From: Dictyostelium discoideum
Taxonomy: Eukaryota
NCBI GenBank assembly: GCA_000004695.1
Contig: CM000153.2
Span: 3,552,001-3,616,000, forward strand
Direction: 5' to 3'
Length of the DNA: 64,000 nucleotides
Shown: in pieces, positions 1-54,324 of the stretch
How positions within the stretch are numbered: the stretch's first letter is position 1
Layout: every line of letters begins with the position of its first letter
The notes under the pieces: model-generated
Seen by the model: the letters and a program-made list of their open reading frames with translations, nothing else
What the model was told of the DNA's origin: nothing
The model's database searches: none
Program-made: the position numbers and the translations under genes

Positions 1-992
1 AAAAGATATAAAAATTTATTAAATCCATCTGAACTCAAACCTTCAGTTCATGCATTATTAAAATCACTTGATCCAATTTATAAGGTTACTCCAGAGGATT
101 TAAAATCTTTACCAATTTCAAATATTGATACTAGTAATGCTGTTATAATTGAAAAAGCATCAGAAATTGAAAATGGTGTTAAACTTTTATTAAATGGTAA
201 ATCTGTCGATCAAATAACTTTGGATGATGGTATTGTTTTAGGTTTTGATCTTGAATGGTCAGCTTTAGAAAGATATACAACTAAAACTAAAAAAGAAACA
301 AAAACTGCCCTCATTACATTAACAAATGGATGGTATGTATAATAATTAAAATTTTATATTATAATAAATAAACAATACTAATATTTTTAAAAATAATAAT
401 GATAATAAAAAATAATAGTGAAACTGTTTTATTTAGAGTGTGTCATACAGGTTTAGATGAAAATAGTGAATTAGGAAAATTATTAAAGAGTGGAGTTATT
501 ACAAAGACAGGTTTTGGTGCTGGTAAAGATGCAAATAAAATTTGTAAAGATTTTGGTTTTGAAGTATGTATTTTTATTATTTATTGGAGAAAAAAAAAAA
601 AAAAAAGATTATAATATATTAATGTATTATTATTTCCTCAAATGAAAATTTATAATTTTATTGAAATTGAAATTGGAATTTTTTTTTTTTTTTTTTATAA
701 TTAGGTAGATGGAATTTTTGATTTAAAATATACACCAAAGATTCTTGCATTATTCAAAAATAGAGCTGTTGAATATGTTACAGCTGGTTTATTTGGAGTA
801 AATATTAAAAGAAATTCAACTTTAATTTTATCAGCTTGGGGAACTTCACACCAATTAAAACCAAGACAAATTCATTCATCTGCATTATATACTATTTACA
901 GTCTAAAAACTTATTTCATGTTACCATCTTTAAAAGTTGATACAACTTTTATCGAAAAAGATACATTCATTCCATTTGCAAAACTTTATTAA
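1..992 (+). CDS. 3'-5' exonuclease (DnaQ-like, WRN-exo/EXD-type) domain protein, C-terminal part; 5' end lies outside the window. Exons about 1-332, 419-563 and 705-992, stop TAA 990-992.
   Basis: Frame 1 reads ...LDDGIVLGFDLEWSALERYTTKTKKETKTALITLTNG from base 1, containing the Exo I motif GFDxEW followed by a hydrophobic ALIxL segment as in WRN-exo/EXD2. A gtatgt donor at 333 and aatag acceptor at 417-418 split a codon (TG|T) and continue ETVLFRVCHTGLDENSELGKLLKSGVITKTGFGAGKDANKICKDFGFE. A gtatgt donor at 564 and ttag acceptor at 703-704 then give VDGIFDLKYTPKILALFKNRAVEYVTAGLFGVNIKRNSTLILSAWGTSHQLKPRQIHSSALYTIYSL...FAKLY*. ORF-track entry 399..614 is exon 2 read into intron 2. Confidence 0.55.
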
Positions 993-1332
993 AAAAAATA
1001 AAATAAAATAAAATTAAAAAATAAAAAATAAAAAATAAAAATAAATACAAATAAAAAGAGAAATAATTATAATTATTTTTTTTTTTTGAAAGTGTGTTGT
1101 ATTAAAAAAAAAAAAAAAAAAAAAAAGTAGTAGTGGGGTATTATTCATTTCAATTACTTTTTATTAAAAAATCAAACAATGAATAAGAAATTCAATTTTA
1201 TTTTTATTTTTATTTATTTTTATTTTTTTATTTTTATACACATTTATTTTTATTATTAAAAATCTAACGTATTAATTTATATATTTAAAAAAAAAAAAAA
1301 ACATATTTAATAATAAGATATTAAAAAAAATA

Positions 1333-2032
1333 ATGAAATTTATTATAATTTTAATTTTTATATATTTTATTAATAATATTAATGGATCTGTAATTAGGTT
1401 ATTAACATTTAATAATGATCAATGTGGTGGTGAACCATATAATATTATAACTAAAAATATATGTTCTTCTAAAGGTTGTTTTAAAATATCACCAGATAAA
1501 AAAATAATTTATGGTATGAGTTTAACATCAAATGAAAGAATAGTTTCAGGAAATAATATTGGAGAATGTATTAAATTTGATAATTCATCATCGCTAATTG
1601 AATATCAAGAAACCAATAATTTATATTCATTTGAAGGTTATTGTAATGAAATTATCACAGATTCATCAACAACTACAAATAATAATAATAATGAAAATAT
1701 TGAAGATTACAGTTGATTCATTAAAAGGTGAATATTGTGGATTTAATTCATCATCAAGCCAAGATTCAAATTATTTCTATTTTAAGAAATCATGTAATTT
1801 AGAAAATGGTATTATTACTCTATCAAATTGTAAATCATGTTTATCTGGTGACAAAAATTGTAAAATTATTCAAACAATTCAAACAAAAACTCAAACAACT
1901 TGCACATCAATTATATCATCTAAAAAATATACTTATCATAATATTTTTGATAATAATTCAAATATTTTAAATAATAATTTTAATTTTTTAACATTTTTAT
2001 TATTGTTAGTAATAATTTCTTTAATTATTTAA
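1333..2032 (+). CDS. Small secreted cysteine-containing protein with hydrophobic C-terminus (GPI-anchor-like; possibly ponticulin-like). Two ORF-track ORFs (1333..1716 and 1598..2032) joined either by a putative 76-nt intron (about 1637-1712, gttatt...acag) or by a frameshift.
   Basis: N-terminal signal peptide MKFIIILIFIYFINNINGS, then conserved Cys spacing (CGGEPY...C..KGC...C). The second frame continues VDSLKGEYCGF...CNLENGIITLSNCKSCLSGDKNCK...TCTSI and ends in a hydrophobic tail LTFLLLLVIISLII. Splicing 1636|1713 joins the two frames in phase (G|TT = Val). Confidence 0.45.
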
Positions 2033-2120
2033 TACTTTTAAAATAAAAAATAAAAATAATTCTAAAAACATTTAATTTTTTTTTTTTTTATTATTATTTA
2101 TTTATTTTTTTTTTTTTAAT

Positions 2121-2260
2121 TTACAACTCTAATTATACTAACAACGGGTTGATTAAGTACTTTTCTAATTGGACCACTTGCTGAAAAGAAAGAGAAAAAC
2201 ATTGAACAAATGAAAACTATTATAATTAATTGCCATGGTAAAGTCATTGGAATTGGTAAC
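2121..2260 (-). pseudogene. Truncated duplicate of the 3'-terminal coding segment of the FtsX-like permease gene at 2545-6120 (a gene-end fragment with no upstream exon).
   Basis: About 95% nucleotide identity to 2550-2690. On the minus strand it would encode ...GPIRKVLNQPVVSI..VV.* but the similarity stops abruptly at 2260. Confidence 0.5.
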
Positions 2261-2335
2261 AAATTAAAATTTTTCTTTTTATGGGATTTTTGGGTTTAAT
2301 AAAAAATTAAATTAATAAAAAAAAAATTAAAACTA

Positions 2336-2450
2336 AAACTCAAACGATTTGTGCATCAACTATATCATCTAAAAATATACTTATCATAATATTTTTGATA
2401 ATAATTCAAATAATTTAAATAATAATTTTAATTATTTAACATTTTAACAA
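2336..2450 (+). pseudogene. Duplicated 3' fragment of the secreted-protein gene 1333-2032, frameshifted and without a start.
   Basis: Matches 1885-2010 (codons ...TKTQTTCTSIISSKKYTYHNIFDNNSN...) with a single-base deletion in the aaaaaatat run. Confidence 0.45.
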
Positions 2451-2544
2451 ATAAAAATTTTAAATTTTAAAAATAATTATTCTAATATTTTAATTTAAAT
2501 TATTATTATTATTATTTTTTTATTTATTTATTTATTTTATTTTT

Positions 2545-4771
2545 TTAAGTTACAACTCTCATTATACTAACAACGGGTTGATTAAGTACTTTTCTAATTG
2601 GTCCAAAAGCTGAAAAGAAAGAGAAAAACATTGAACAAATGAAAACTATTATAATTAATTGCCAAGGTAAAGTCATTGGAATTGGTAACATTGTAAATAA
2701 TTGTCTTTGAAGGATCATTGTGAAACCAACAGTTGAACCAATAAACATACCCAACATTGAGGAAGCCATAACCAATACGAAAGCTTCATAGACGTAAATT
2801 CTAATCATCCAAGATTTTGGTATTCCCAATGCACATAAAACACCAATTTCTTTAGTTTGTTCTAAAATATTTGAATATACAGAAGACATTAAAGAGAAGA
2901 AAGAGATGGTCATTGCTAAAACTGTAGTAAAACTGAAAAAGTATTGAATGATCACAGAGGCCGTTGCAAAAGGTTTAATCTTTTCATAGTAATCCAACAT
3001 ATCGAAATCCTCTCTAAGATTACCAATTAAAAAGCTATTTAAACGATTCTTTATTGATTCTACAGCATCTTTATCATCAGTATTCAATTTCAAAATCACT
3101 TGATTCATTGGAATTTCACGTACTGATGAGAAGATACTACTTGCATACGAGAGATAAGTTGGAAATGATACGATTGAATCTTGATTTGTAACTGATGGGA
3201 ATTTAGAGAATTTAAAAGATGGTGCGCTATCTAACATTGCCGATGGTTTAACTAAGTGTCTAGTGGAATTAACTGATGAAGCTTCACCAGATTTAATATT
3301 TAATTGTAATAGGAATGATTGATCAATTGAAGCACCAATAACATCGGTATACAATGAACCAATGATTATCTTTTGACCACTAGTAAATGAATAGATTTGC
3401 TCGGAAAGATATTGAATATCATTCAAACTATAATCAGGATCAGGAGCGATTGAGCTTGCCTTTAAGAATCCAGGTAAAGTAGTAGCGAATAAGTTTGGAG
3501 AAATCGCATACATATTGGTGCCATCACTATAGATATGACCAATGTTTGTAATTTGAGATTGTTGATATTGTTTAGTCATAATTGAGAAAGATGAAGACTC
3601 CCAAGCGTAATCTTCAATCTCTGGTTGATATTGTGAGAGGAATTGATCGATTAACAAAGTTGACTCTGGTTGAAAGAATGGTTCACTACTTTTCACACTT
3701 AGATAACTACCATAGCTTTGTTGAACTTGATAATTCATTGATGCCTGTTGCATAGAGTATGAAACATTGACAAAGATAATGAATGCCAATGAAACTGCAT
3801 ACATGATAGCGGTCTTTCTATTTCTAAGTTTATGAGCTATTAAATTCTTTATAACCAATGATTTGATAGCACGTTTCTCCCAAAAGAAGAATAGATTAAC
3901 TACAGCCCTCTCTAGAATCTGTTCAACATTTAATGCTAAACTAACCAACCCCAATAACATTGCAATCAACAACATGAAGAACATATTTAAAAGTAGTGTC
4001 AAATTGAATGAAAGCAACGACAATGGGAACACATAATAAATTCCAAAGCCAAACACAGACAACAATGAGCCAATCAATGCAACCGATGATGAGAAACTGT
4101 TATCTTCACTACGTTCAATTGAGATTTGTACAGCGGCAGTCTTTGAATGTTTCACATCTAAAGAGTCATGTAAATTCTTACCCAATGCATTACGAATTGG
4201 AAAGATTGCCGACGCTATTGGAATTATAATACCCAATGCCGATGCTAACAATATGGCTTCACCTGTTAATTTTGGTGGAATTGGTACGCCAGTAATTGAT
4301 TTGAAAATAGCAGAAACAATGAATCCAAATACTTGAGCAATTAATAAACCTAAACCCCAAGATGGTACACTATAGGAGAATGCTTTGAATAGCATCAATT
4401 GAATAATACCATTTCTTGTTGTACCAATCATTCTCATTACACCCATTTCAAAGGTTCTAGTCTCTACATCAATCATCAACAATGAATAAATCAATAGAAT
4501 CGATAAAAACAATAGAATGAATATGATTACATTCAAAATCAAACCTAAAAATAATGCTACATATCTATTCTTTGAAAGTTCACTCATCACTGGTAATTCT
4601 GATGAAAGTTCATTAAATCCAACTTTATATAAAATTTTATTTGAAAAATCTACAATCTTTTCTAAAATTACATCTTGATTTGAATTAATATATGGTGTTA
4701 ATCTTGATGGTGGTAAATTTATAATAACTTGTTTTGAATAATCATAAAAATTAATTTTTGAAATATAACTT

Positions 4772-4810
<39 letters not shown>

Positions 4811-5996
4811 AAAAATTAATATATATATATATAATTTTTCCCCGATTTTTTTTTAAAAAAAAAAAAAAACAATATTAAATAAACTTACTTTTTTGAATTA
4901 TAATTCATTTCTGGATCAAATTGTGTAATTAAAAATGGTAAAAATGTTGAATATTCAATGATTATGGAAGAACTTTGATCGGATGGGAACTTACCTTCAG
5001 AAGAAGAGAAAGTATCAGCAACAGTTGCTGTTGCATAAATTACGGGTATGGTTGAAGAGGTGATATTGGCATGAGTCCAAATTGATGATAGAAATGATCT
5101 AGTTGGAATACGAATGAATATTGTATCACCCTTTGAAATTGATAATTTATTTGCTAAATTCTCTTGAACGTAAACTGTACCCTGTGGTGGAGCATCCAAT
5201 TTCCAATCACGACCTAATCCCATCCTCTTTTCACGTGCAGTATCAATCACAAACATCGATGCTTTACTTGCTACTGAATTACTACAAACTGATTCGAAAC
5301 AGTATGGTTCACATTGATTTGGCTCATCATGATATTTCCAAAGATTATCATTTGGATTTGTGTTACCGTTTGGACACGACTTTGCACTAACCACACTAAC
5401 AGTCCCATCGACTCTTGGTGAATGGTAACTATCATCTACTTCTTCTAATTCATATTGATTATTATTATTATTATCATCAAAATAACTTCCATTTGGTTCT
5501 TTATATGTACCAGCTAATAACTCTGATAACATTGTATAATTTAATTGATCTGATAATGTCCATGAACCAGGTGTCAACACCATATCCATTTCACCAACAC
5601 TTGCTTCTGACAAACTTAGGAATACCACTGGTGTGTTGGTGATGATGGAAACACATAGTGACACTATAAACACTACCAAGAAGCATGCGGAAAATCCTAA
5701 CAAATAGGATAACTTATTACGTAGATTGATTCTTAATGTATGTGAAAAGAAATGTTTCCAATGGTAGAGTAATGTTCTAAACCAATTCACTATCTTCACT
5801 TTTACTGTATCACCATTTATTGCATTTGATATACCCTTGAATTTACCATAAGGTTTACTTGATATTTTCTTCTTAATTTTACCATTGTCATCATAATTAT
5901 CTTTATTTTTTAAAAATGTTTGTTCTTCTGAATTTTCTATAAATTCATCAAAACTATCGCTACTACTACTACTACCATTACTTTTATTTATTTTTA

Positions 5997-6036
<40 letters not shown>

Positions 6037-6120
6037 ATCTCTTGATTTTATAAAATCATCATCTTCTTCATCATCATTATTATTTATAGATTGATATTTA
6101 TTATTCCTTTTATTTGTCAT
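2545..6120 (-). CDS. MacB/FtsX-type permease-like polytopic membrane protein with two FtsX (DUF214) modules and no ABC ATPase domain; about 1100 aa. This is a divergent member of the tandem family, called here the second-half ABC-transporter permease-like protein. Exons about 6120-4889 and 4768-2545, with an intron about 4888-4769 (gtaagt...ag) that splits a codon (AA|G).
   Basis: The ORF-track pieces 4885..6120 and 2545..4590 are on the same strand. The upstream piece ends at a GTAAGT donor and the downstream exon actually starts at 4768 (KYISKINFYDYSKQVIINLPPSRL...VMSELSK...). The first module reads RNKLSYLLGFSACFLVVFIVSLCVSIITN followed by a large extracytoplasmic domain and then LLIYSLLMIDVETRTFEMGVMRMIGTTRNGIIQLMLFKAFSYSVPSWGLGLLIAQVFGFIVSAIF, a classical FtsX TM2-4 signature. 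The second module ends EQTKEIGVLCALGIPKSWMIRIYVYEAFVLVMASSMLGMFIGSTVGF...GPIRKVLNQPVVSIMRVVT*. Confidence 0.7.
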
Positions 6121-6717
6121 TATTTTTTGGTTTCTATTTTTTTGTTTCTTTTTTTAATAGTAATATATATACATATATAAAACTATTTTTTATTGTTTAT
6201 TTTAATCTTTTTTTATTTTTTTTAGGATTTTTGAAAAAATTTAAAAAAAAAAAAAAAAAAATTTAAAGATTATGTCAGTGAAATTTTGGTGGTGTTATTT
6301 GTATTTAATTAAAAAATTTGTGTGGTATAAATTCTGGAAAAAAAAAAAAAAAAATTAAAATAAAATTTAAAAAAATAATAATAAAAAAAAAAAAAAAAAC
6401 TAATAATATAAATGGGGTATATTAATAATTGTAACACTTTCAGATATGTAAAAAGTAATAACACTGAAAAAAAAAAAAAAAAAAAAAAAAATTAGGAAAA
6501 ATAAATTGAAAACTTAAAAAAAAAAAATAAAAAATAAAAAAATAAAAAAATAAAAAAAAATCTTTTAATTTTTTTAATTGTAACCATGATCCAATAATCT
6601 CTAAATTTTTTTTTTTTTTTTTTTTTTTTTGGTATCGTTTTCTAATTATTTGTTTTAGATGACCACCTGTCATTTCCTTCAGATTGCAATCAATAATTAA
6701 AATCAGATTATTAAAAA

Positions 6718-6786
6718 AAAAAAAATAAATAATATAAAATAAAATAAAATAAAATAAAATAAAATAAAATAAAATAAAATAAAATA
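6718..6786. repeat. (AAAAT)n microsatellite, about 13 units.
   Basis: aaaataaaataaaataaaat... read directly. Confidence 0.9.
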
Positions 6787-7538
6787 AAAACATCAAAAAA
6801 TAAAACTGAAAATAATTAAAATATTTTTTATATTTTTTTTTTTTTTTTTTTTATAAAATTGATAAACAATTTAATTAACAAACAATTTTTTTTTTTTTTA
6901 TTCACTTACAATTTTATTTTTGCACACCACTTTTTCTTTTTATTTTGGCCTAAAATTATAAAAAAAATATCTTTTTTAAAAAAGATTTTTACATTTTTTT
7001 TTTTATTTTTTTTTTCTTTTTTTTCTTTTTATTTTTTTATTTTTAATTTTTTTTTTTTCAATTCATTTCATTTCCATTATTTCTTTAAACTTATTTTTTT
7101 TTTAATATAACCCTTTTTATTAAATATTTGTAAACAATGAATCAATTAGGTATGTTTTAAGACTTTTATTTTTTTATTTATTTTTATTTTTATTTTTTTT
7201 TATTATCATTATTTTCTTTAAAATATTACTAACCATAAATTTATTTCTATAGGATCCGGACCAACAAAACAAGGAGTTGCAACAAATACAGGTTCAACTG
7301 GAACTACTAAAAATAATAGCAACCTTAGTGGAAAAGGTTGGGTTCTTTAGGTTTTTTGATGATCTTTTCTTTATTGTGAAATTACTTACCATCATCAATT
7401 TTTGTTGATTGATCAAAAAAAAAAAAAAAAAAAAAAAAAGTATGCAAATTACTTTTATAAATATATTTTTAGAATATTTCAAGTTTTCTAATCAAAACAT
7501 AGTTTTTTTTTTTTTGTATTTTAGAATTAATGTATAGA

Positions 7539-7593
<55 letters not shown>

Positions 7594-7920
7594 CCAATAA
7601 ATAACAGAACATTTCTAATTCATTATTGAAAAAAATATAAAAAAAGTAATCAAATGAATATAATATAAGGTATAATTTTAATATTAGTTTTAATCTTAAA
7701 TTTTTTTTTTTTCCAATTAATATTCACAATCAAATTTATATTTAAAAAATAAAAACAGTAAATTTGGAAACAAATCAAAAGAAATAAATTTGTTTTTTGT
7801 TTTTTTTTTAAATAGTTTTATTTTAAATAATAAAAATAATAAAATAAAAAAAAAGTAATAATTAAATCTTTCAGTTCTTTTATTTTACTTTTTATTTTAC
7901 TTTTTTTTTTTTAAAAAAAA

Positions 7921-10900
7921 TTAATCTTTTAAAACTGTTATGATTGATTGTTTTAATAAATGTCTAATTGGAGAAATTACAGAAATGATTGAGACAATTA
8001 AAGATGAAATAAAGAGTATAGGAATTAATTCCCATTGAATTGAAAATGGTATAATTTGTTGATCCATCATTGATTGTTTTAATAGAATAATATAGCTAAT
8101 GAAAAGACCAATAATAATACCAATTATACAACTACCAAATGAAAGTGTAAAAGCTTCGATAATATAGATTTTATAGATTTTAAAATTTGATAAACCAATT
8201 GATCTTAGAATACCAATTTCTTTTGATTGATTTTTAATACTTGTAAACATTGATGAAATTAATGAAAATGATGATATTATTATAGAGATTACTGTTGCGA
8301 AATCAAACAATAATGAATTTAATTTATCTGAACTGTTTGATGAATCTTTATATCTAATTATATATGGACTTTCAGAGTTTTTATTAAATAAACAATTTTT
8401 TGAAATTTTATATTGTAAAGAATCGATTTTATCGTCATCTAATGATTTTGGTTTAATTAAAATTAAATTAACTGGTATATTCCTAACTGAATCAATATTA
8501 CCACCTGATAATCCGACATATGCTGGAAAAGAAGTAATTACACTTTGAGTAAGATCTTCATCCGGAATTTCAGATACACTAAATGTACCTGCAGTTTTTA
8601 AATATGCTAATGGTTTCACTATATTTCTACCCATCCAGTTGAATGTTACATTATGTTTTTGACTTCGACCTGATGAATAATCTATTCTTCTATAGTTATT
8701 AATTTCAATATAATTTGATAATATAAATTCATCTGGTCCACCTTTTTCATCAAGATACATTAATTTCTTTTGAGATTGAGTTAATATTAATTTATTCATT
8801 GAATCTTTGCTATATAAAATCGTTGATAAATCAGTCATATCACCATTTTGATTAAAATCAACATCTTTATCAGTTTTTAAATTTTTTGAAACTGATGAAA
8901 CTTGAAAATAATCTTCCATTATTTCACTGAAATAAGTTGGGCCAACTGCATGTAATGATGATTTTAATGTTACACTTCTAGCAAAATCAGAAACATATGA
9001 TTTCTTATCATCGGGTTGAGAAAATTCACTAAATTTCATTGATCTTAATGAATAACTATCTAATTCATCATTATTTTCATCATCTAATATACGATCTAAA
9101 CATAGAGTTATATTTGATAAATCTTCTCTGGTGATAAAGGAACCAGTTTCAATCTTTAAAAGTGAACCAAACGATTGTTTCTCATTAGCATTTGCAGTTT
9201 CAACTTGAATTAAATATAAACAATTAATTATAATTATTAAAGATACTGAAACACCAAACATAAACATTGTACTTTTATTCTTTTTCTTGTGAGAAATTAA
9301 ATTTTTATATAAAATTATTCTGATTATATTTTTTGCAAAAGGATCTATTAAAGTAATAATGTAAACTAATGTTTTTGAAATGATTAAATGGAAATTCATC
9401 ATTAAGAAAATTGCTGATATTAAAACTAAAATTAACAATCCAAATAATAATGCTAATAATGAACTAAAATTACCAGATAATAATAATTTTGGTAATAAAA
9501 TACAACCAACTATACCTAAAGCGCTTAATGACAAACCAATCCATGATAAATACTTTCTATATTCTGAATCAGTTGAATCTTTATCAATTGTTGTAATTTG
9601 ATGTGATGATGATATATTTGATCTACTAGTATCCAATTGCTCACCTAATGAAAAACTTAATGCTTTTCTAATTGGTAATATCAATGATACCATTGGTATT
9701 AGAAAACCAAGTAAAATTGAATAAACAATTGAATCTACTGTTAAATAATTTGAAATTTCATCTGAATTTGTAAAACGTTTTAATTGATCTATAATTATAA
9801 ATAAAAAGATTTGAGAAATTATTAAACCTAATATAATTGATGGGACTGTGAATATTATTGTTTTTGAAACTATTAGCTCGATGATGAAACTAAATTTAGC
9901 ACCTAACATTCTAAATACACCGTTATTAAATGTCATTGAATCCACATCAATCATTAATGTTGTATAAATTAAAAGAATTGATAATAAAAGGAATACAAAA
10001 ACTATTAAATTTAATAATTGACCTAAATTACTTGAAACTTCGTTACTCTTGTATAATTCAGTCATTATTGGTGTTGAAATATCAACTCTACCAACACCAA
10101 TTTTGTAAACTAATTTCGAGGCAACTTTATTTACTCTTTGTAAAGTTTTATCTAAATCTGTACCATAATACATTGGCAATCTGGGGGATGGAAATTTCAT
10201 AACTATATTTTCAACATATTCTTTTATATTTTTATTTTTCATTAAATCTACATTCCATGTTGGATTTACTTGTTCAACCATTGAATCATAGAATGAGTCA
10301 ATATCTATTAAAACTGATGGTATTATCTCACCCAATTCGAAACCTAGTTCAAATGGATTCTCTGTATTATTGAAAAATCCATTAACTTTTAATTTTGTTA
10401 TTATATATGGTGATTTTTCAATTTGAGTTGTTGAAATCATTGAATCTGTTAATAATGTTGATAATAATCTAACTGCTGGTACTATTATAAAAATTTCATC
10501 ACCAACATTTGCATGGATTGATTGAGCAAGTGATTCTATAATTAAACATGTTCCTTTTGGTTGTGATCCATAACCAAATGTTGATTTTATACCCATATCA
10601 TTCTCTTTTTTAAAATCTAGTAATTGGAAACCCATAAATACATGATTTCCTTCACCACTACATCTATTAATAAAACAAGTGCTCTCTGTGCAATTTAAAC
10701 CACTCCCATTTGAAAAGTATCTTGATTCAATATTATCTTGTACAACTTTTTCACAATAACTTACTGGATATCCATATGTATCTATAAAATTAAATCTTGG
10801 TGAATTATTTTTAAAAAAACTATTTTTATTACTAATACCACTACCACTATATAATCCATGGGTATTCTTTTCATCAGCTCCAACTCTATTATCATCTTTT

Positions 10901-11643
10901 ATTTCTCTAGTTGTATCATTTAAAATTTGATCAAATAATGTATAATTTAATCTTATAGTAAAACCTTTTTCTAAATCTATTGAAAGTTGTTGTTTTCCTG
11001 ATATTATTAAATCTATATGATTAGCATCAGAATCTGCTTTACTTAAAAATATTAATGATATATTTGATAATACTGATAAACCAGTTGCAACTAAAATTAC
11101 TACTAAAAAACATGATATAAAACCAATACTATAATTCAATTTACTCCTTTTAATACCATTTATTGAATATTTAATTATTGAAAACCATTCTCCAATAGTT
11201 GTATTAAATCCAATATTTGTTAAATTTATTTGAATCTTTTTTAAAATAAATCCAAAATATTTTAAAAATTCTAAACTTCCAAAAATTAATATTATAAAAA
11301 ATTCCAAAAAAACAAAAATTCCTTCAATTATTATTTTAAGTTTATTGAAAAAATAATTCTCTTTTTTAATATTATTATTATTATTATTATTTATATTATC
11401 ATCATAATAATAAATATTGTCACCTTGACAATCATTTTCAAGTGATCCTTTTAAAATTGATAATTCAATTGGGTCACATTCACCAACACTCTCTCTCCAT
11501 TTATTATAAAATTTTTTATTAATTAAAATTGGATCATTCTCATTCCTATTATTTATAGAACTCTTTAAAATTGAACTATTTTCATTGATGATACTATAAT
11601 CACCATCATCATTATCATTCCCACTTGATTCATAATTATACAT
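7921..11643 (-). CDS. MacB/FtsX-type double-permease-like membrane protein, paralog A; 1240 aa, apparently a single exon.
   Basis: A full-length ORF. The first module, GIKRSKLNYSIGFISCFLVVILVATGLSVLSNISLIFLSKADSDANHIDLI, follows the MacB TM1 pattern (R.K..L..LGI.IGVA.V....G......S.I.S.G.N.I.I). It is followed by a ~400 aa Cys-containing extracytoplasmic domain and the FtsX core LLIYTTLMIDVDSMTFNNGVFRMLGAKFSFIIELIVSKTIIFTVPSIILGLIISQIF. The second module has a TM, a large domain and NQSKEIGILRSIGLSNFKIYKIYIIEAFTLSFGSCIIGIIIGLFISY. Confidence 0.8.
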   Translation of the reverse strand: MYNYESSGNDNDDGDYSIINENSSILKSSINNRNENDPILINKKFYNKWRESVGECDPIELSILKGSLENDCQGDNIYYYDDNINNNNNNNIKKENYFFNKLKIIIEGIFVFLEFFIILIFGSLEFLKYFGFILKKIQINLTNIGFNTTIGEWFSIIKYSINGIKRSKLNYSIGFISCFLVVILVATGLSVLSNISLIFLSKADSDANHIDLIISGKQQLSIDLEKGFTIRLNYTLFDQILNDTTREIKDDNRVGADEKNTHGLYSGSGISNKNSFFKNNSPRFNFIDTYGYPVSYCEKVVQDNIESRYFSNGSGLNCTESTCFINRCSGEGNHVFMGFQLLDFKKENDMGIKSTFGYGSQPKGTCLIIESLAQSIHANVGDEIFIIVPAVRLLSTLLTDSMISTTQIEKSPYIITKLKVNGFFNNTENPFELGFELGEIIPSVLIDIDSFYDSMVEQVNPTWNVDLMKNKNIKEYVENIVMKFPSPRLPMYYGTDLDKTLQRVNKVASKLVYKIGVGRVDISTPIMTELYKSNEVSSNLGQLLNLIVFVFLLLSILLIYTTLMIDVDSMTFNNGVFRMLGAKFSFIIELIVSKTIIFTVPSIILGLIISQIFLFIIIDQLKRFTNSDEISNYLTVDSIVYSILLGFLIPMVSLILPIRKALSFSLGEQLDTSRSNISSSHQITTIDKDSTDSEYRKYLSWIGLSLSALGIVGCILLPKLLLSGNFSSLLALLFGLLILVLISAIFLMMNFHLIISKTLVYIITLIDPFAKNIIRIILYKNLISHKKKNKSTMFMFGVSVSLIIIINCLYLIQVETANANEKQSFGSLLKIETGSFITREDLSNITLCLDRILDDENNDELDSYSLRSMKFSEFSQPDDKKSYVSDFARSVTLKSSLHAVGPTYFSEIMEDYFQVSSVSKNLKTDKDVDFNQNGDMTDLSTILYSKDSMNKLILTQSQKKLMYLDEKGGPDEFILSNYIEINNYRRIDYSSGRSQKHNVTFNWMGRNIVKPLAYLKTAGTFSVSEIPDEDLTQSVITSFPAYVGLSGGNIDSVRNIPVNLILIKPKSLDDDKIDSLQYKISKNCLFNKNSESPYIIRYKDSSNSSDKLNSLLFDFATVISIIISSFSLISSMFTSIKNQSKEIGILRSIGLSNFKIYKIYIIEAFTLSFGSCIIGIIIGLFISYIILLKQSMMDQQIIPFSIQWELIPILFISSLIVSIISVISPIRHLLKQSIITVLKD

Positions 11644-11651
11644 TTATCTGT

Positions 11652-11685
<34 letters not shown>

Positions 11686-11709
11686 GAAAATGGTTAGCAC
11701 TTCTTTCCG

Positions 11710-11743
<34 letters not shown>

Positions 11744-12506
11744 ACTGATTATTTTTTGACTTTTTTTTAAATTCTTTTATTTTTAATTCCCTAATTTTTT
11801 TTTTTTCTTTTATTTTTTTTTTTTCTATTTTTTTTTTTTTACTTTCTGATTATATTTTTTTTTTACTTTTTTTTTTTTTTACTTTCCGATTATTTTTTTT
11901 TTTTAAAAAAAAAAATAATTTATTGGTCTTTCAATTTTTTTTAAAAAGTAAAGAAAAAAAAAAAAAAAATAAGTGTAAAATTTAAAGTTTTACAAATGAT
12001 TGCAAATGTGTCTAGAAAATAAAAAAAAGAAAAAAAAAAAAAAAACGAAAATTAGTTTTGAAATAATCTTGTTTTTTAGGGATTTTCTTGAAAACACAAA
12101 AAACTATTAATCCCGAACCTTTAAAATTTTGAAAAATTAATTATTTTTTTTTTTTTTACTTTTATAATTATTGCTCCATTTTAAATCGATATTTTTATAT
12201 TTTTAGAAAAAAAAAAAAAAAATAAAAATAAAAGAATTAATAATGTAAAGAAAAAGCCAATTATAGATCAAGAGATTTGAGGGGAATGTTTTTTTTTTTT
12301 ATTATAATCATTTTTTTTATAAATTTCCTATTTTCTTGAAAAAAAAAAACTGCAAGGCACTGTAAAGAAAATTTTTTGGTCTGAGGAATAGTGTTTTATT
12401 TTTTTAATTTGGATTTTAATTAAAAAAAAATAAAAATAAAAATAAAAAAAATAATAAAAGCCTGGAAGAATTTGGACAATCACTTTGTGGTTCCAGAAAA
12501 AACTAT

Positions 12507-12567
12507 ATCATAAATTATAAAAAAAACCTCAGAAGATACAAGGAAATTCTTTGAAGATCCAATCACT

Positions 12568-12608
<41 letters not shown>

Positions 12609-12728
12609 ATAATTATCCATAAAATACAATAAAACAAATAAAATATTTTTATTCTTAATTTTTTGAAAATCTTCAAGGAATTTCCTTGTATCTTCTCAGA
12701 GGTTCTTTTTATAATTTATAATATAGTT
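12507..12728. repeat. Inverted repeat with ~55-bp arms (about 12507-12563 and 12672-12728) separated by a ~105-bp A-rich spacer, lying 25-240 bp 3' of the stop codon of permease paralog B.
   Basis: Left arm tatcataaattataaaaaaaacctcagaagatacaaggaaattctttgaagat. Reverse complement of right arm ataaattataaaaagaacctctgagaagatacaaggaaattccttgaagat. There are 3-4 mismatches over about 50 bp. Confidence 0.75.
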
Positions 12729-12750
12729 TTTTTTTTTTTTTTTAAAGAAA

Positions 12751-15700
12751 TTAATCTTTTAAAACTGTAATAATTGGTTGTTTTAATAAATGTCTAATTG
12801 GAGAAAATACAGAAATGATTGAGACAATTAAAGATGAAATGAAGAGTATAGGAATTAATTCCCATTGAATTGAAAATGGTATAATTTGTTGATTCATAAC
12901 TGATTGTTCCAATAGAATTGTATAGCTAATGAAAAGACCAATAATAATACCAATTATACAACTACCAAATGAAAGTGTAAAAGCTTCGATAATATAGATT
13001 TTATAGATTTTAAAATTTGATAAACCAATTGATCTTAGAATACCAATTTCTTTTGATTGATTTTTAATACTTGTAAACATTGATGAAATTAATGAAAATG
13101 ATGATATAATCATTGAGAGTACAGTTGCAAAATCAAAGAATAATGAATTTAATTTATCTGAACTATTTGATGAATCTTTATATCTAATTATATATGGACT
13201 TTCAGAGTTTTTATTAAATAAACAAGTTTCTGAAATTTTATATTGTAATGAATCAATTAAATCGTCATCTAATGATTTTGGTTTTAATAAAATTACGCTA
13301 ACTGGTATATTCCTAACTGAATCAATATTACCACCTGATAATCCGACATATGCTGGAAAAGAAGTAATTACACTTTGAGTAAGATCTTCATCCGGAATTT
13401 CAGATACACTAAATGTACCTGCAGTTTTTAAATATGCTAATGGTTTCATTACATTTCGACCAATCCAATTGAAGGTTACATTTTGTTGTTGATTTTTACC
13501 AGATGGATCAATTTTTGTATAATTATTAATTTCAATATAATTTGATAAAAGAAATTCATCTGGACCACCTTTTTCATCAAGATACATTAATTTCTTTTGA
13601 GATTGAGTTAATATTAATTTATTCATTGAATCTTTACTATATAAAATCGTTGATAAATCAGTCATATCACCATTTTGATTAAAATCAACATCTTTATCAG
13701 TTTTTAAATTTTTTGAAACTGATGAAACTTGAAAATAATCTTCCATTAATTCACTGAAATAAGTTGGACCAACTGCCCATAGTGATGATTTTAAAGTTTT
13801 AGTTTTAGCAAGATCAGAAACAATTGATTTCTTATCAGGTTGAGAAAATTCACTAAATTCCATTGACCTTAATGAATAACTATCCAAACCATTATTTTCA
13901 TCATCGATTATTCGATCTAAACATTGAGTTATATTTGATAAATCTTCCCTTTTTATAAAGGTACTGGTTTCAATCTTTAAAAGTGAACCAAAGTATTGTT
14001 TATTTGAAGCATTTGAAATTTCAACTTGAACTAAAAATAAACAATTAATTATAATTATTAAAGATACTGAAACACCAAACATAAACATTGTACTTTTATT
14101 CTTTTTCTTGTGAGAAATTAAATTTTTATATAAAATTATTCTAATAATATTTTTTGCAAAAGGATCTATTAAAGTAATAAGGTAAACTAATGTTTTTGAA
14201 ATGATTAAATGGAAATTCATCATTAAGAAAATTGCTGATATTAAAACTAAAATTAACAATCCAAATAATAATGCTAATAATGAACTAAAATTACCAGATA
14301 ATAATAATTTTGGTAATAAAAAACAACCAACTATACCTAAGGCGCTTAATGATAAACCAATCAATGATACAAACTTTCTATATTCTGAATCAGTTGAATC
14401 TTTATCAATTGTTGTAATTTGATGTGATGATGATATATTTGATCTACTAGTATCCAATTGCTCACCTAATGAAAAACTTAATGCTTTTCTAATTGGTAAT
14501 ATCAATGATACCATTGGTATTAGAAAACCAAGTAAAATTGAATAAACAATTGAATCTACTGTTAAATAATTTGAAATTTCATCTGAATTTGTAAAACGTT
14601 TTAATTGATCTATAATTATAAATAAAAAGATTTGAGAAATTATTAAACCTAATATAATTGATGGGACTGTGAATATTATTGTTTTTGAAACTATTAGCTC
14701 GATGATGAAACTAAATTTAGCACCTAACATTCTAAATACACCGTTATTAAATGTCATTGAATCCACATCAATCATTAATGTTGTATAAATTAAAAGAATT
14801 GATAATAAAAGGAATACAAAAACTATTAAATTTAATAATTGACCTAAATTACTTGAAACTTCGTTACTCTTGTATAATTCAGTCATTACTGGTGTTGAAA
14901 TATCAACTCTACCAACACCAATTTTGTAAATTAATTTTGAAGTAAATTCACTAACTCTTTGTAAAGTTTTATCTAAATCTGTACCATAATACATTGATAA
15001 TCTTGGTGATGGAAATTTCATAACTATATATTCGACATATTCTTTAATATTTCTATTTTTCATTAAATCTACATTCCATGATGGATTTACTTGTTCAACC
15101 ATTGAATCATAGAATGAGTCAATATCTATTAATATCGATGGTATTGTTTCACCCAATTCGAAACCTAGTTCATATGGATTCTCTGTATTATTGAAAAATC
15201 CATTAACTTTTAATTTTGTTATTATATATGGTGATTTTTCAATTTGAGTTGTTGAAATCATTGAATCTGTTAATAATGTTGATAATAATTCCACTGCTGG
15301 TACTATTATAAAAATTTCATCACCAATCTTTAATTCTGTTGCTTTAGCCAATAATTCTACCATTAAACATGTACCCTTTGGTTGTGATCCATAACCAAAT
15401 GTTGATTTTATACCCATATCATTCTCTTTTTTAAAATCTAGTAATTGGAAACCCATATATACATGTTCTCCATCACCACCGCATCTATTAATAAAACAAG
15501 TACTCTCTGTGCAATTTAAATCACTACCATTTGAAAAGTACCTTGCTTCAATATTATTTTCAACAATGTTTTCACAATAATTTACGGGATATCCATATGT
15601 ATCTATCATATGAAATCTTGGTGAATTATTTTTAAAATTTTTTTTTTTACTTCCACCACTACTTGAACTCTGGATTATAGTTTCACTAGCTCCAGCACTA

Positions 15701-16383
15701 TTTTCACCTTTTATTTCTATATTCTCTATTTTTTCAAAATTTAAAATTGCATTATTTAAAATTTTATCAAATAATGTATAATTTAATCTTATAGTAAAAC
15801 CTTTATCTAAATCTATTGACTGATGTTGTTTTCCTGATATTATTAAATCTATATGATTAGCATCAGAATCTGCTTTACTTAAAAATATTAATGATATATT
15901 TGATAATACTGATAAACCAGTTGCAACTAAAATTACTACTAAAAAACATGATATAAAACCAATACTATAATTTAATTTACTCCTTTTAATACCATTTATT
16001 GAATATTTAATTATTGAAAACCATTCTTCAATAATTGTATTAAATCCAATATTTTTTAAATTTATTTTAATTTTTTTTAAAATTAATCCAAAAAATTTAA
16101 ATTCTTTTTTTAAAAATTCCAAAGCTCCAATAATTATTGAGGTTAATAATTTAAAAAAATATAAAATTCCTTTGATTATTATTTTAAATTTATTATTTTT
16201 TTTAAAATGATAATCGTTACTGTCACAATCTTCATCAAATGATGTTAAAATTGCATAATTTTTAGTGATGGAATTATCGTCATCATCTCCATCCTCATCT
16301 TCATTACAGTTGTCATTTTCACTTGGTCCATAAAAATTATGCATTTCTATTCTTTTTTTTATTTTAAAATTATTGGTTAGCAT
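12751..16383 (-). CDS. MacB/FtsX-type double-permease-like membrane protein, paralog B; 1210 aa. Its N-terminal ~90 residues are unrelated to those of A and C.
   Basis: Very high identity to 7921-11643 and 17277-21032 across most of its length, with identical stretches such as KSPYIITKLKVNGFFNNTENP and LLIYTTLMIDVDSMTFNNGVFRMLGAKFSF. The N-terminus MLTNNFKIKKRIEMHNFYGPSEND... is different, and the first M could be preceded by a missed 5' exon. Confidence 0.8.
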   Translation of the reverse strand: MLTNNFKIKKRIEMHNFYGPSENDNCNEDEDGDDDDNSITKNYAILTSFDEDCDSNDYHFKKNNKFKIIIKGILYFFKLLTSIIIGALEFLKKEFKFFGLILKKIKINLKNIGFNTIIEEWFSIIKYSINGIKRSKLNYSIGFISCFLVVILVATGLSVLSNISLIFLSKADSDANHIDLIISGKQHQSIDLDKGFTIRLNYTLFDKILNNAILNFEKIENIEIKGENSAGASETIIQSSSSGGSKKKNFKNNSPRFHMIDTYGYPVNYCENIVENNIEARYFSNGSDLNCTESTCFINRCGGDGEHVYMGFQLLDFKKENDMGIKSTFGYGSQPKGTCLMVELLAKATELKIGDEIFIIVPAVELLSTLLTDSMISTTQIEKSPYIITKLKVNGFFNNTENPYELGFELGETIPSILIDIDSFYDSMVEQVNPSWNVDLMKNRNIKEYVEYIVMKFPSPRLSMYYGTDLDKTLQRVSEFTSKLIYKIGVGRVDISTPVMTELYKSNEVSSNLGQLLNLIVFVFLLLSILLIYTTLMIDVDSMTFNNGVFRMLGAKFSFIIELIVSKTIIFTVPSIILGLIISQIFLFIIIDQLKRFTNSDEISNYLTVDSIVYSILLGFLIPMVSLILPIRKALSFSLGEQLDTSRSNISSSHQITTIDKDSTDSEYRKFVSLIGLSLSALGIVGCFLLPKLLLSGNFSSLLALLFGLLILVLISAIFLMMNFHLIISKTLVYLITLIDPFAKNIIRIILYKNLISHKKKNKSTMFMFGVSVSLIIIINCLFLVQVEISNASNKQYFGSLLKIETSTFIKREDLSNITQCLDRIIDDENNGLDSYSLRSMEFSEFSQPDKKSIVSDLAKTKTLKSSLWAVGPTYFSELMEDYFQVSSVSKNLKTDKDVDFNQNGDMTDLSTILYSKDSMNKLILTQSQKKLMYLDEKGGPDEFLLSNYIEINNYTKIDPSGKNQQQNVTFNWIGRNVMKPLAYLKTAGTFSVSEIPDEDLTQSVITSFPAYVGLSGGNIDSVRNIPVSVILLKPKSLDDDLIDSLQYKISETCLFNKNSESPYIIRYKDSSNSSDKLNSLFFDFATVLSMIISSFSLISSMFTSIKNQSKEIGILRSIGLSNFKIYKIYIIEAFTLSFGSCIIGIIIGLFISYTILLEQSVMNQQIIPFSIQWELIPILFISSLIVSIISVFSPIRHLLKQPIITVLKD

Positions 16384-16794
16384 TTTTTTTTTTTTCTTAT
16401 CTAAAACTTAGATGTTATTTTTATTTTTATTTTTATTTTTATTTTGAAAGAAAATAATAATTTATAAAGTCTTTTCTTTTTTTTTTTATAATTAAAAAAA
16501 GAAAATAAATACAGCTTAAATTTTCATTTTATGTTGCTGACATTGCTTCATTGTAAACCTATCTTCATTTTCAAAAAAAGAAAAGGTGGCACTTCAAATA
16601 TTTTATTTTATTATAAAGAAAAAGATAAAAAACTATTGTCTGTCTGGCTTTTTTTAAGAACTAAGAAAAGTTTTTTGAAAATTTGGTTGATCTAGCCTTT
16701 TTTTTTTTTGTTATTTTTTGGTTTTTATGATAACGATCGAGAAAAAAAAAGTTGTTTATTTTCTAAAAAAAAAAAAAAAAACCAGGTGAGTCAC

Positions 16795-16895
16795 AAGAAA
16801 ATTATGTTTGTGTGAAGGGAGTCCCTAAGAAAATAAAAGTTAAAAAAAAGAGGCGACAAACCCACCAGCGCGGCACAAAATTACTTTTCACTTTA
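16795..16895. repeat. Copy 1 of a ~90-bp dispersed repeat of unknown family (GC-richer than its surroundings).
   Basis: ...gggagtccctaagaaaataaaag..aagaggcgacaaacccaccagcgcggcacaaaattacttttcac... aligns with 57957-58075 (...ggggagtcacatggaaaataaaa..aagaggcaacaaacccaacgctgcataaaatttcttttcac...). Confidence 0.55.
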
Positions 16896-17135
16896 GTTTT
16901 TTTGAAATTTGCATTTTTTTTTGATAAAGATTCAGAAAAAAAAAAATGTTTTTAAAAAAAAAAATGAAATGAAAATAAAAAAAATATATAAAAGCCTGGT
17001 AGAATTTGTATAATCAATAAAAGAAGTTCAGTTACATATAATGAAAAAATTATTTTTAAAACTTTTTACTTTTATTTTTAATTTTATTATTATTTTGATT
17101 TTAAAAAAAAAAAATTATTATCTGATTGTCTTAGG

Positions 17136-17171
<36 letters not shown>

Positions 17172-17276
17172 ATCACCCTTGTTATGATTGATTTCGATTC
17201 GATTCGATTTGATTTAATTTGATATGATTTATTATTATATTATTACTATTTTTATTATTTTTATTTTAAAATAAAA

Positions 17277-20200
17277 TTAATCTTTTAAAACTGTAATAAT
17301 TGGTTTCTTTAATAAATGTCTAATTGGGGAAACTACAGAAATGATTGAGACAATTAAAGATGAAATGAAGAGTATAGGAATTAATTCCCATTGAATTGAA
17401 AATGGTATAATTTGTTGATTCATAACTGATTGTTCTAATAGAATTGTATAGCTAATGAAAAGACCAATAATAATACCAATTATACAACTACCAAATGAAA
17501 GTGTAAAAGCTTCAAAAATATAGATTTTATAGATTTTAAAATTTGATAGACCAATTGATCTTAGAATACCAATTTCTTTTGATTGATTTTTAATATTTGT
17601 AAACATTGATGAAATTAATGAAAATGATGATATAATCATTGAGAGTACTGTTGCAAAATCAAAGAATAATGAATTTAATTTATCTGAACTGTTTGATGAA
17701 TCTTTATATCTAATTATATAAGGACCTGTTGATTTTAGATTAGATAAACATTTTTGACTAATTTTTAATCTTAATGAATCAATTAAATCATAATCTAATG
17801 ATTTTGGTTTAATTAAAATTACACTAACTGGTATATTCCTAACCGAGTCGATATTACCACCTGATAACCCAACATATGCTGGAAATGAGGCTATTACACT
17901 TTGAGTTGCACCTTTATCTGGAATCTCAGATACACTAAATGTACCTGCAGTTTTTAAATATGCTAATGGTTTCATTAAATAACGACCCATCCAATTTAAT
18001 GTTACATTTTGTTGTTGATTTTTGCCAGATGGATCAATTTTTGTATAATTATTAATTTCAATATAATTTGATAATAAATATTCATCACTACCACCTTCTT
18101 GATCAAGATACAATAATTTCTTTTGAGATTGAGTTAATATTAATTTATTCATTGAATCTTTACTATATAAAATCGTTGATAAATCAGTCATATCACCATT
18201 TTGATTAAAATCAACATCTTTATCAGTTTTTAAATTTTCTGAAACTGATGAAACTTGAAAATAATCTTCCATTAATTCACTGAAATAAGTTGGACCAACT
18301 GCAAATAATGATGATTTTAAAATTCTAGTTCTACCAAGATCAGAAACCGTTGATTTCTTATTATCAGGTTGAGAAAACTCACTAAACTCCATTGATCTTA
18401 ATGAATAACTATCTAAACCATTATTATCATCCATTAAACCATCTAAACATTGGGTAATATGTGATAAATCTTCTCTAAGTAAAAATGTTTCTGTTTCAAT
18501 CTTTAAAAGTGAACCATAGTATTGTTTTCTAGAAGCATTTGCAGTTTCAACTTGAACTAAATATAAACAACTAATTGTAATAATTAAAGATACAGAAATA
18601 CCAAACATAAACATTGTACCTTTATTCTTTTTCTTGTGAGAAATTAAATTTTTATATAAAATTCTTCTAATAATATATTTTGCACCAGGATCGATTAAAG
18701 TAATAAGGTAAACTAATGTTTTTGAAATGATTAAATGGAAATTCATCATTAAGAAAATTGCTGATATTAAAACTAAAATTAACAATCCAAATAATAATGC
18801 TAATAATGAACTGACATCACCGGATAATAATAATTTTGGTAATAAAAAACATACCACTATACCAAAAGCACTAATTGATAAACCAATCAATGATACAGAC
18901 TTTTTAAATTCTGCATCTTTTGAACCTTTATCAATTGTTGTAATTTGATGTGATGATATTTTTGATCTACTAGTATCCAATTGTTGATTTAATGAAAAAC
19001 TTAATGCTTTTCTAATTGGTAATATCAATGATACCATTGGTATTAGAAAACCAAACAAAATTGAAAATAGAATTGAATTTACTGTTAAATACTTTGAAAT
19101 ATCTGCTGAATTTGATATACTCTTTAATTGATCTACGACTATAACTAAAAAGATTTGTGAAATTATTAAACCTAATATAATTGATGGTATTGTGAAAATT
19201 ATTGTTTTTGAAACTATTAGCTCGATGATGAAACTAAATTTAGCACCTAACATTCTAAATACACCGTTATTAAATGTCATTGAATCCACATCAATCATTA
19301 ATGTTGTATAAATTAAAAGAATTGATAATAAAAGGAATACAAAAACTATAATATTTAATAATTGACCTAAATTATTTGAAACATCTTTGCTCTTGTATAA
19401 TTCAGTCATTACTGGTGTTGAAATATCAACTCTACCAACACCAATTTTGTAAATTAATTTTGAGCAATAATCACCCACACGTTGTAAAGTTTTATCTAAA
19501 TCTGTACCATAATACATTGATAATCTTGGTGATGGAAATTTCATAACTATATATTCGACATATTCTTTTAAATTTCTATTTTTCATTAAATCTACATTCC
19601 ATGTTGGATTTACTTGTTCAACCATTGAATCATAGAATGAGTCAATATCAATTAATATAGATGGTATTGTTTCACCCAATTCAAAACCTAATTCATAACC
19701 TAATTCGTATGGATTCTCTGTATTATTGAAAAATCCATTAACTTTTAATTTTGTTATTATATATGGTGATTTTTCAATTTGAGTTGTTGAAATCATTGAA
19801 TCTGTTAATAAAGTTGATAATAATTTAACTGCTGGTACTTTTAAAAAAATTTCATCACCAATCTTTAATTCTATTCTTTTAGCCAATGATTCTATCATTA
19901 AACATGTACCCTTTGGTTGTGATCCATAACCAAATGTTGATTTTATACCCATATCATTCTCTTTTTTAAAATCTAGTAATTGGAAACCCATATATACATG
20001 TTCTCCATCACCACCACATCTATTAATAAAACAAGTACTCTCTGTGCAATTTAAATCACTACCATTTGAAAAGTACCTTGCTTCAATATTATTTTCAACA
20101 ATGTTTTCACAATAATTTACGGGATATCCAAATGCATCTATCATATGAAATCTTGGTGAATTATAATCAAAATTATTAAAACCACTACTATCACCACCAA

Positions 20201-20685
20201 TAAATAAACTATTGAAACTATTAGCTTCATTCAATTCTATTAATTTTTCAAAATTTAAAGTTGCATCATTTAAAAGTTGATCAATTAATGTATAATTTAA
20301 TCTGACATCAATAATTTCACCTAAATCTATTGATTGTTGTTTGCCTGATATTATTAAATCAATACCATAGGCATCAGAATCTGCTTTACTTAAAAATATT
20401 AATGATATATTTGATAATACTGATAAACCAGTTGCAACTAAAATTACTACTAAAAAACATGATATAAAACCAATACTATAATTCAATTTACTCCTTTTAA
20501 TACCATTTATTGAATATTTAATTATTGAAAACCATTCTTCAGTAATTTTAAAAAATCCAATATTTCTTAAAATTAATTTAATCTTTTTTAAAATTATTTT
20601 AATCCTTTTTAAAATTGATTTAAAAAATTCTAAAATTATTATTATTATTTTTATTATTATTATTTTAAATTTTTTTATATATAAA

Positions 20686-20716
<31 letters not shown>

Positions 20717-25439: not shown

Positions 25440-29748
<4,309 letters not shown>

Positions 29749-54231: not shown

Positions 54232-54324
<93 letters not shown>

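Follow-up and report, generated by a model that had tools for sequence, protein, structure and literature searches.

The convergent 3' ends of two genes of Dictyostelium discoideum, a small plus-strand gene encoding a Cys-rich protein and a minus-strand gene encoding an FtsX/DUF214 permease, are both present twice within a few hundred nucleotides. The locus lies near the left end of the window, the whole 64,000-nt stretch of DNA that was analysed (D. discoideum, GCA_000004695.1, CM000153.2, positions 3,552,001-3,616,000 of the forward strand; 22% G+C, with long A/T runs and introns of the GTAAGT...AG type). With a probability of roughly 0.8, we regard this structure as a real tandem duplication in the germ line, ~430-450 bp in length, which arose by illegitimate joining with filler at the junction and has been seen in the AX4-type D. 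discoideum lineage only. The repeat occurs in more than one assembly, its breakpoints are located in coding sequence, and the gene ends that it left stranded between the two parent genes are decaying. The features on which the argument depends are as follows.

1333-2032, plus strand: small gene for a Cys-rich product whose start resembles a signal peptide and whose tail is hydrophobic, DDB_G0285659 in AX4 (the plus gene)
2545-6120, minus strand: FtsX/DUF214 permease gene, 1151 amino acids (aa) in a spliced model with exon 1 at 4889-6120, an intron of 120 nt and exon 2 at 2545-4768
1872-2261: left copy of the unit, consisting of the real plus-gene 3' end, intergenic spacer and the permease 3'-end relic, as delimited by the Basic Local Alignment Search Tool (BLAST) segment pair and alignment
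2321-2690: right copy of the unit, consisting of the plus-gene 3'-end relic, intergenic spacer and the real permease 3' end, as delimited by BLAST and alignment
1886-2032, plus strand: real plus-gene 3' end, which takes in the hydrophobic C-terminal tail and the stop
2116-2261, minus strand: permease 3'-end relic, an open reading frame (ORF) of 48 codons and a stop, with 7 differences from the real end
2262-2333: junction filler, ~60-70 nt, A/T-rich, with two GGG motifs; the left homology limit that bounds it is fuzzy, at 2321 by BLAST and 2334 by eye
2334-2443, plus strand: plus-gene 3'-end relic with a 1-nt deletion, a stop before the hydrophobic tail and a garbled tail, as read from three-frame translations
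2545-2690, minus strand: real 3' end of the permease coding sequence, contiguous with the remainder of exon 2, its C-terminus identical to that of orthologues
2690-2698, plus strand: 9-mer ATTGTAAAT, whose first base is the last homologous one at the right breakpoint

When positions 1800-2760 were compared with the whole window by gapped BLAST, the direct copies 1872-2261 and 2321-2690 were aligned at 83% identity over 401 columns (E 1.8e-111, 393 bits), and all remaining matches in the 64 kb were A/T low-complexity hits of at most 81 bits; a repeat search and Smith-Waterman alignment agreed with BLAST on the two copies, between which 33 mismatches and 17 gap openings were counted. The permease 3' end (2116-2261 versus 2545-2690) is identical at 139 of 146 positions (95.2%) with no indels, the plus-gene 3' end (1886-1996 versus 2334-2443) matches in 102 of 112 columns (91%), the second copy having lost 1 nt, and the A/T-rich intergenic middle (1997-2115 versus 2444-2544) is identical in 81 of 130 columns, 40 of the 130 being gaps. 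Measured at its right side, the repeat has a period of 429 nt, and at its left side one of 448-449 nt; similarity stops abruptly at its right edge, between 2261 and 2262 in one copy and between 2690 and 2691 in the other. The copies are adjacent, have the same orientation and resemble each other far beyond chance, which identifies them as a tandem segmental duplication.

An earlier note on this DNA, made by reading the sequence, had described a small tandem duplication of ~440 bp in which the facing gene ends were copied and two end fragments remained, and this description was confirmed by BLAST, alignment and block comparison. Its size estimate agrees with the measured periods, the permease fragment that it placed at 2121-2260 versus 2550-2690 with ~95% identity is borne out by the slightly longer block given above, and the sharp end of similarity at a junction is indeed present. 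The statement that the last ~130 bp of the plus gene occur twice holds for the first ~110 of its last 147 nt, which are recognisably duplicated, but not for the part encoding the hydrophobic tail and stop, which is garbled in the second copy. Similarly, the copies are direct and adjacent, as the word tandem implies, but they are not strictly head-to-tail, with ~60-70 nt lying between them. Retro-copying or a processed pseudogene was ruled out, as the unit spans the intergenic spacer and parts of two opposite-strand genes and adjoins its source. No tRNA or Rfam features were detected in the duplicated region. Long ATT/AAT-type trinucleotide arrays at ~28550-28660 and 54216-54323, typical simple repeats of Dictyostelium, gave ladders of BLAST matches to the A/T-rich spacer.

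Both breakpoints are located in coding sequence, and neither falls in a poly-A/T tract. The right breakpoint lies inside the permease coding sequence, between the Met and Leu codons that stand 49 and 48 codons ahead of the stop, while the left homology limit (1872-1886) lies inside the plus-gene coding sequence, beside a (ATTCAAACA)2 repeat. At the junction, GGTAAC-AAATTAAAATTTTTC... runs into the filler; the junction-spanning sequence is GGTAACAAATTAAAATTTTTCTTTTTATGGGATTTTTGGG. The joint is not seamless, since ~60-70 nt (2262-2320/2333) match neither flank. Comparison of these nucleotides with positions 1800-1885 gave no significant similarity (p 0.15-0.5 against shuffles and random window pieces). 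A seamless duplication whose start has decayed would place the sequence of ~1814-1885 at 2263-2333, and it was rejected because that pairing scores no better than shuffles or random pieces. The G-containing core of the filler, TTTATGGGATTTTTGGGTTTAAT, is unique in the window, and a search of the 64 kb for its 23-mer core with up to 3 mismatches returned only the core itself. Among the eight orthologous loci that were fetched (listed below), a 14-mer from the filler was found only in L005, the locus of GCA_054883475.1, and was absent from all relatives. A blastn-short search of all sequences collected revealed no source, and exact scans of metagenome and prokaryote genome contigs gave 0 matches, both for the filler and for a conserved permease word. 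The segment 2262-2320/2333 is therefore called filler, without a detectable source in the 64-kb window or the eight loci.

The 9-mer ATTGTAAAT at the right breakpoint recurs at 1827-1835, and the 8-mer ATTGTAAA is also present immediately outside the left homology limit, at 1857-1864. These left-hand words sit 37-59 nt outside the detectable homology, the 8-mer occurs 17 times on the plus strand of the window, and the junction does not hold exactly one copy of the word. Among random pairs of coding segments, a shared word of at least 9 nt was encountered with P = 0.018, in a test chosen post hoc. The presence of ATTGTAAAT at the breakpoints hints at microhomology-primed joining, and we infer that the two ends were brought together by end joining or by template switching primed on this word. 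A single illegitimate joining or template-switch event would have connected a point in the permease 3' coding sequence (between 2261 and 2262, equivalent to between 2690 and 2691) to a point in the plus-gene 3' coding sequence (~1830-1886). The ~60-70 nt of filler would have been inserted at the junction during joining, and the surplus ends would have been stranded back to back in a spacer enlarged from ~100 to 512 nt. Because the breakpoints lie in two facing genes, each gene keeps one uninterrupted 3' end, the plus gene to 2032 and the permease to 2545.

Comparison of eight orthologous loci (L001-L008) indicates that the single-copy arrangement is ancestral. The order of a Vps54-like gene, an exonuclease gene, the small plus gene, the permease and its FtsX paralogues is constant across the loci, with the exception of D. 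purpureum, and the distances between the two facing stop codons are as follows.

512 nt: the window and L005 (GCA_054883475.1), AX4-type D. discoideum
105 nt: L001 (GCA_054859385.1), labelled D. discoideum
96 nt: L004 (GCA_054859355.1), labelled D. discoideum
98 nt: L002, D. cf. discoideum
88 nt: L008, D. cf. discoideum
137 nt: L006, D. citrinum
110 nt: L007, D. firmibasis
Plus gene absent and no repeat: L003, D. purpureum

Self-comparison of L001-L004, L006 and L007 (L008 was not in this set) yielded no direct self-matches. The two window segments 2261-1 and 3200-2321, both read leftwards, map to one and the same single stretch of L001 (9415-9826), and L002 behaves likewise. Since the unit is single-copy in the six relatives carrying both genes and no repeat is present in D. 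purpureum, the duplication is derived and, among the available genomes, restricted to the AX4-type lineage. It was also observed that L001 and L004, both labelled D. discoideum, differ from window positions 1-12000 at 4-8% of third codon positions, in a pattern that is patchy by exon (1-7.5%). Such a difference is far above the usual diversity within a species, and it points to cryptic species or to a mosaic ancestry.

The earlier note had called the duplication recent, a claim that the divergence of the copies does not sustain. The unique blocks differ at 7 of 146 positions at the permease end and at ~9-10 of 111 at the plus-gene end, i.e. by 5-9%, and each relic has acquired ~3-5% private changes. 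Between the window and L001/L004, third codon positions diverge by 8.4% and 7-9% in exons 2 and 1 of the permease gene, respectively, by 6.5% in the adjacent paralogue, and by ~4% in both the plus gene and the exonuclease gene. As the copies have diverged about as far as the window has, at third positions, from its nearest relatives with a single copy (4-8% pairwise), the duplication is of the same order of age as the split from L001/L004.

Several points weigh against the preferred explanation. The mechanism is not directly readable from a junction that carries filler rather than a clean microhomology, and the test of the 9-nt word (p ~0.02) was post hoc. The assembly GCA_054883475.1, if reference-guided, is not fully independent of the AX4 reference. 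In comparison with the relatives, no derived site is common to both copies. At the aligned pairs 1899/2347, 1903/2351 and, ambiguously, 2236/2665, the left unit shares its state with L001/L004, and the outgroup state is retained in the right unit. A simple duplication after the split accounts for this pattern less well than an older event or an exchange that involved two diverged haplotypes. The pattern could have come about by reversion, the genome being biased towards A/T, by loss elsewhere of an older duplication, or by diverged-haplotype exchange.

A variant of the timing can accordingly be formulated, in which the two units were not identical at the start, either because the duplication is older than the L001/L004 split and was then lost in that branch, or because illegitimate exchange took place between diverged homologous chromosomes, e.g. 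in a cross. Its support comes from the sites themselves, as 1899/2347 and 1903/2351 show C in the left unit and in L001/L004 and the outgroup T in the right unit, 2236/2665 shows T in the left unit and in L001/L004 and A in the right unit, L002, L008, L006 and L007, and the opposite pattern was nowhere seen. Third-position divergence from L001 also differs across the junction, being 98/1152 (8.5%, permease) to the right and ~4.3% to the left (56/1290 in L005 1-4657 plus ~9/232 in the plus gene). Nevertheless, only two or three sites are involved, one of them ambiguous because D. purpureum has another state, and C-to-T reversions are plausible at 22% G+C. The divergence on the left is patchy (1-7.5% per exon), so that the data do not place a switch precisely at the junction, and for loss in L001/L004 a crossover would have had to fall in the final 25 nt of the unit. 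We therefore consider this variant unlikely, albeit one still to be reckoned with.

The fate of the stranded gene ends supports the view that they are remnants of the duplication. The ATG-initiated part of the permease relic (2116-2247, minus strand) corresponds exactly to DDB_G0285661, annotated in AX4 as a hypothetical protein of 43 aa (XP_638202.1, Q54MU1). Compared with the real permease end, the relic carries the replacements F to S (a 3-nt cluster at 2177-2179), M to I and T to N, and the replaced F, M and T residues are invariant in 8/8 real genes, including that of D. purpureum. Four nucleotides and part of the 3-nt cluster are private to the relic, whereas the real end has one private change (up to 1-2), only synonymous. 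The relic thus has three non-synonymous codons versus one synonymous and the real copy none versus 1-2, the direction of which fits neutrality, the counts being too small for a test. The plus-gene relic has undergone six private changes, including a frameshift, and, once the frame is corrected, a stop is encountered just ahead of the garbled hydrophobic tail. Replacement of invariant residues in one piece, and a frameshift with a stop in the other, show that the stranded ends are decaying.

The segment corresponding to DDB_G0285661 is absent from L001, L002, L003, L004, L006, L007 and L008, and no orthologue was found in these loci; judged from the comparison of sequences, DDB_G0285661 is a relic or gene fragment and not a conserved gene. 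Direct reading of the real permease coding sequence revealed no GT splice donor at the homology boundary, and the permease relic for this reason does not serve as an alternative last exon. All four gene ends are followed by AATAAA motifs, which is uninformative at 78% A+T. From sequence alone, both relics look non-functional. In a database cluster of proteins at 90% identity that holds the permease and the 43-aa relic, a 52-aa protein of Aquimarina latercula (WP_155839675.1) is also listed; its sequence is unrelated, and its presence looks like a clustering artefact of the database and not like biology.

A functional role has nevertheless to be weighed, in wider and narrower form. In the wider form, the duplication may uncouple convergent transcription, the ends having moved from ~100 to 512 nt apart with decoys between them, or the open 43-codon relic may give rise to a new membrane micro-protein with a single helix or to a regulator acting in antisense. 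A reading that does not concern function, namely that the units come from two diverged haplotypes, may be placed beside these, and we hold the whole set to be quite improbable. Were DDB_G0285661 expressed as a micro-protein or antisense regulator, it would represent gene birth from a gene fragment caught in the act, and were the two units derived from two diverged haplotypes, they would bear the mark of an old illegitimate exchange between homologues. In the narrower form, the relics themselves are functional, with DDB_G0285661 encoding a genuine membrane micro-protein of 43 aa with a single helix, or else an alternative permease 3' exon, or with antisense RNAs or insulation of the convergent genes being provided. 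Consistent with this, the 48-codon frame is still open, with an ATG at 2247, DDB_G0285661 is annotated as a gene in AX4, and growth of the spacer presumably must alter where the convergent transcripts overlap. An open frame after 5-7 substitutions is, however, expected by chance, the segment is missing from all seven relatives, the replacements fall on residues invariant in real genes, and no donor is available for splicing from the real coding sequence to the relic. The literature yielded no paper mentioning DDB_G0285661, its neighbours, the new assemblies or Dictyostelium DUF214 biology. Functional relics are therefore very improbable.

The mechanism proposed in the earlier note, recent slippage or unequal exchange between poly-A/T tracts, derives its appeal from the abundance of such tracts in the spacer (2076-2117 and 2499-2547), poly-A/T tracts being known substrates of slippage. 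The homology edges, at 2261/2690 in the permease coding sequence and at ~1872-1886 in the plus-gene coding sequence, are nonetheless outside these tracts, the ~60-70 nt of unrelated sequence at the junction do not fit slippage, and the 5-9% difference between unique blocks, similar to the distance from the nearest relatives, does not fit a recent event. Both the mechanism and the timing of that proposal are thus set aside as highly improbable.

The remaining alternative is an assembly artefact, in which one genomic copy was written twice by the assembler. The locus in GCA_054883475.1 (L005, a chromosome sequence) is 100% identical to window positions 1-7032 without a gap, and thus includes the duplicated structure. 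Two AX4 reference proteins likewise agree with the sequence of the window, which is on these grounds assigned to the AX4 type. The AX4 protein XP_638202.1 carries the S, I and N residues found only in the permease relic and is placed on a 5,450,249-bp AX4 reference record, whereas L005 is located on a different record of 5,576,411 bp. Since these are different records, the duplication is present even in whichever of the two did not supply the window. The duplicated region is A/T-rich and repeat-prone, but the copies are only 83% identical and have a unique stretch between them, whereas artefactual duplicates in a haploid genome would be near-identical, so that a false duplicate can be dismissed as extremely improbable.

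Both parent genes were also characterized. The C-terminal FtsX-like domain of the permease was recognized in two stretches (Pfam PF02687, E 1.3e-24, 86.9 bits versus a cut-off of 25.5), and the closest relatives of the protein are Dictyostelium proteins, at 98% for D. discoideum and 95% for D. cf. discoideum entries. The annotation of GCA_054883475.1 contains a permease of the same gene length and span with 1151 aa, while the spliced 1151-aa model gave no exact match on protein look-up. The permease at 2545-6120 is the divergent member of a four-gene array, which is completed by three tandem FtsX/DUF214 paralogues on the minus strand (7921-11643, 1240 aa; 12751-16383, 1210 aa; 17277-21032, 1251 aa) that share 87-92% nucleotide identity with a period of ~4.7 kb.

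The plus gene carries a defect of its own, a 14-nt deletion between 1706 and 1707 (TTATTGTAAAAGTG, present in L001, L002 and L004) that causes a frameshift and a stop at 1714-1716. Two different introns, annotated around 1645-1771, bridge this defect, one in DDB_G0285659 of AX4 (209 aa) and the other in ACTFIT_005739 of GCA_054883475.1 (215 aa), while the orthologues in relatives are uninterrupted ORFs of 233-245 aa. In this strain, DDB_G0285659 has probably become a pseudogene or a truncated gene, which two pipelines rescued with invented introns. Database searches returned eight matches to this small secreted-protein family, all from species of the D. discoideum group, and in D. purpureum (L003 9483-9637) no such gene is located between the permease and the exonuclease gene, which together indicate that the gene is young and lineage-restricted. 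In independent short-read assemblies, look-ups of four exact protein sequences (the 43-aa ORF, the truncated ORF of 127 aa, the exon-2 ORF of 680 aa and the 209-aa protein of AX4) retrieved no record. Elsewhere in the window, a plus-strand ORF at 51409-52797 contains internal tandem repeats at 52226-52605, with offsets of ~51-54, 108, 162 and 216 nt and 83-89% identity, which point to a repeat of ~18 residues within the coding region.

The duplication is an ordinary lineage-specific structural variant, for which the earlier interpretation was right in kind and wrong on mechanism and age, while its suggestion that alternative 3' ends, polyadenylation signals or antisense transcripts might be supplied found no support. 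It raises no new biological question, and its main practical value lies in the correction of two gene models, DDB_G0285661 and DDB_G0285659, the former of which (Q54MU1) should be counted as a gene fragment, not a gene. It also offers a textbook case in which the breakpoints fall in convergent genes, neither gene is damaged and two dated relics are left behind. These relics could serve as a small yardstick of neutral evolution in an extremely A/T-rich genome.

Among known systems, the closest resemblance is to the microhomology-mediated tandem duplications reportedly described in fission yeast, and to fork stalling and template switching (FoSTeS) and microhomology-mediated break-induced replication (MMBIR), which are replication-based template-switch models. 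The shared characteristics are direct adjacent copies of a few hundred bp, breakpoints in unique sequence, a short word (ATTGTAAAT) at or near both breakpoints and single-copy relatives; unlike those cases, the Dictyostelium junction contains ~60-70 nt of filler and no clean copy of the word, and the copies have diverged by 5-9%. Filler or templated insertions occur at junctions produced by polymerase-theta-mediated end joining and by non-homologous end joining (NHEJ), and the tens of extra nucleotides exactly at the novel joint are reminiscent of these, although here no template is present in the 64-kb window or the eight loci and the involvement of an enzyme cannot be inferred. Gene relics at duplication breakpoints are sometimes annotated as orphan ORFs, and DDB_G0285661 resembles such truncated pseudogene fragments in being a promoterless 3' fragment without 5' exons whose frame is open, which was called by a pipeline and which bears replacements at conserved residues. 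It differs in that one event produced two relics from convergent genes, both parents of which retain intact 3' ends. Finally, the tandem amplification of FtsX/DUF214 genes at the same locus (three paralogues, 7921-21032) shares the neighbourhood, the direct orientation and the gene family with the duplication described here. In that amplification, however, whole genes were copied with a period of ~4.7 kb, whereas the relic derives from the adjacent gene (95%), and the C-termini of the paralogues differ from it.

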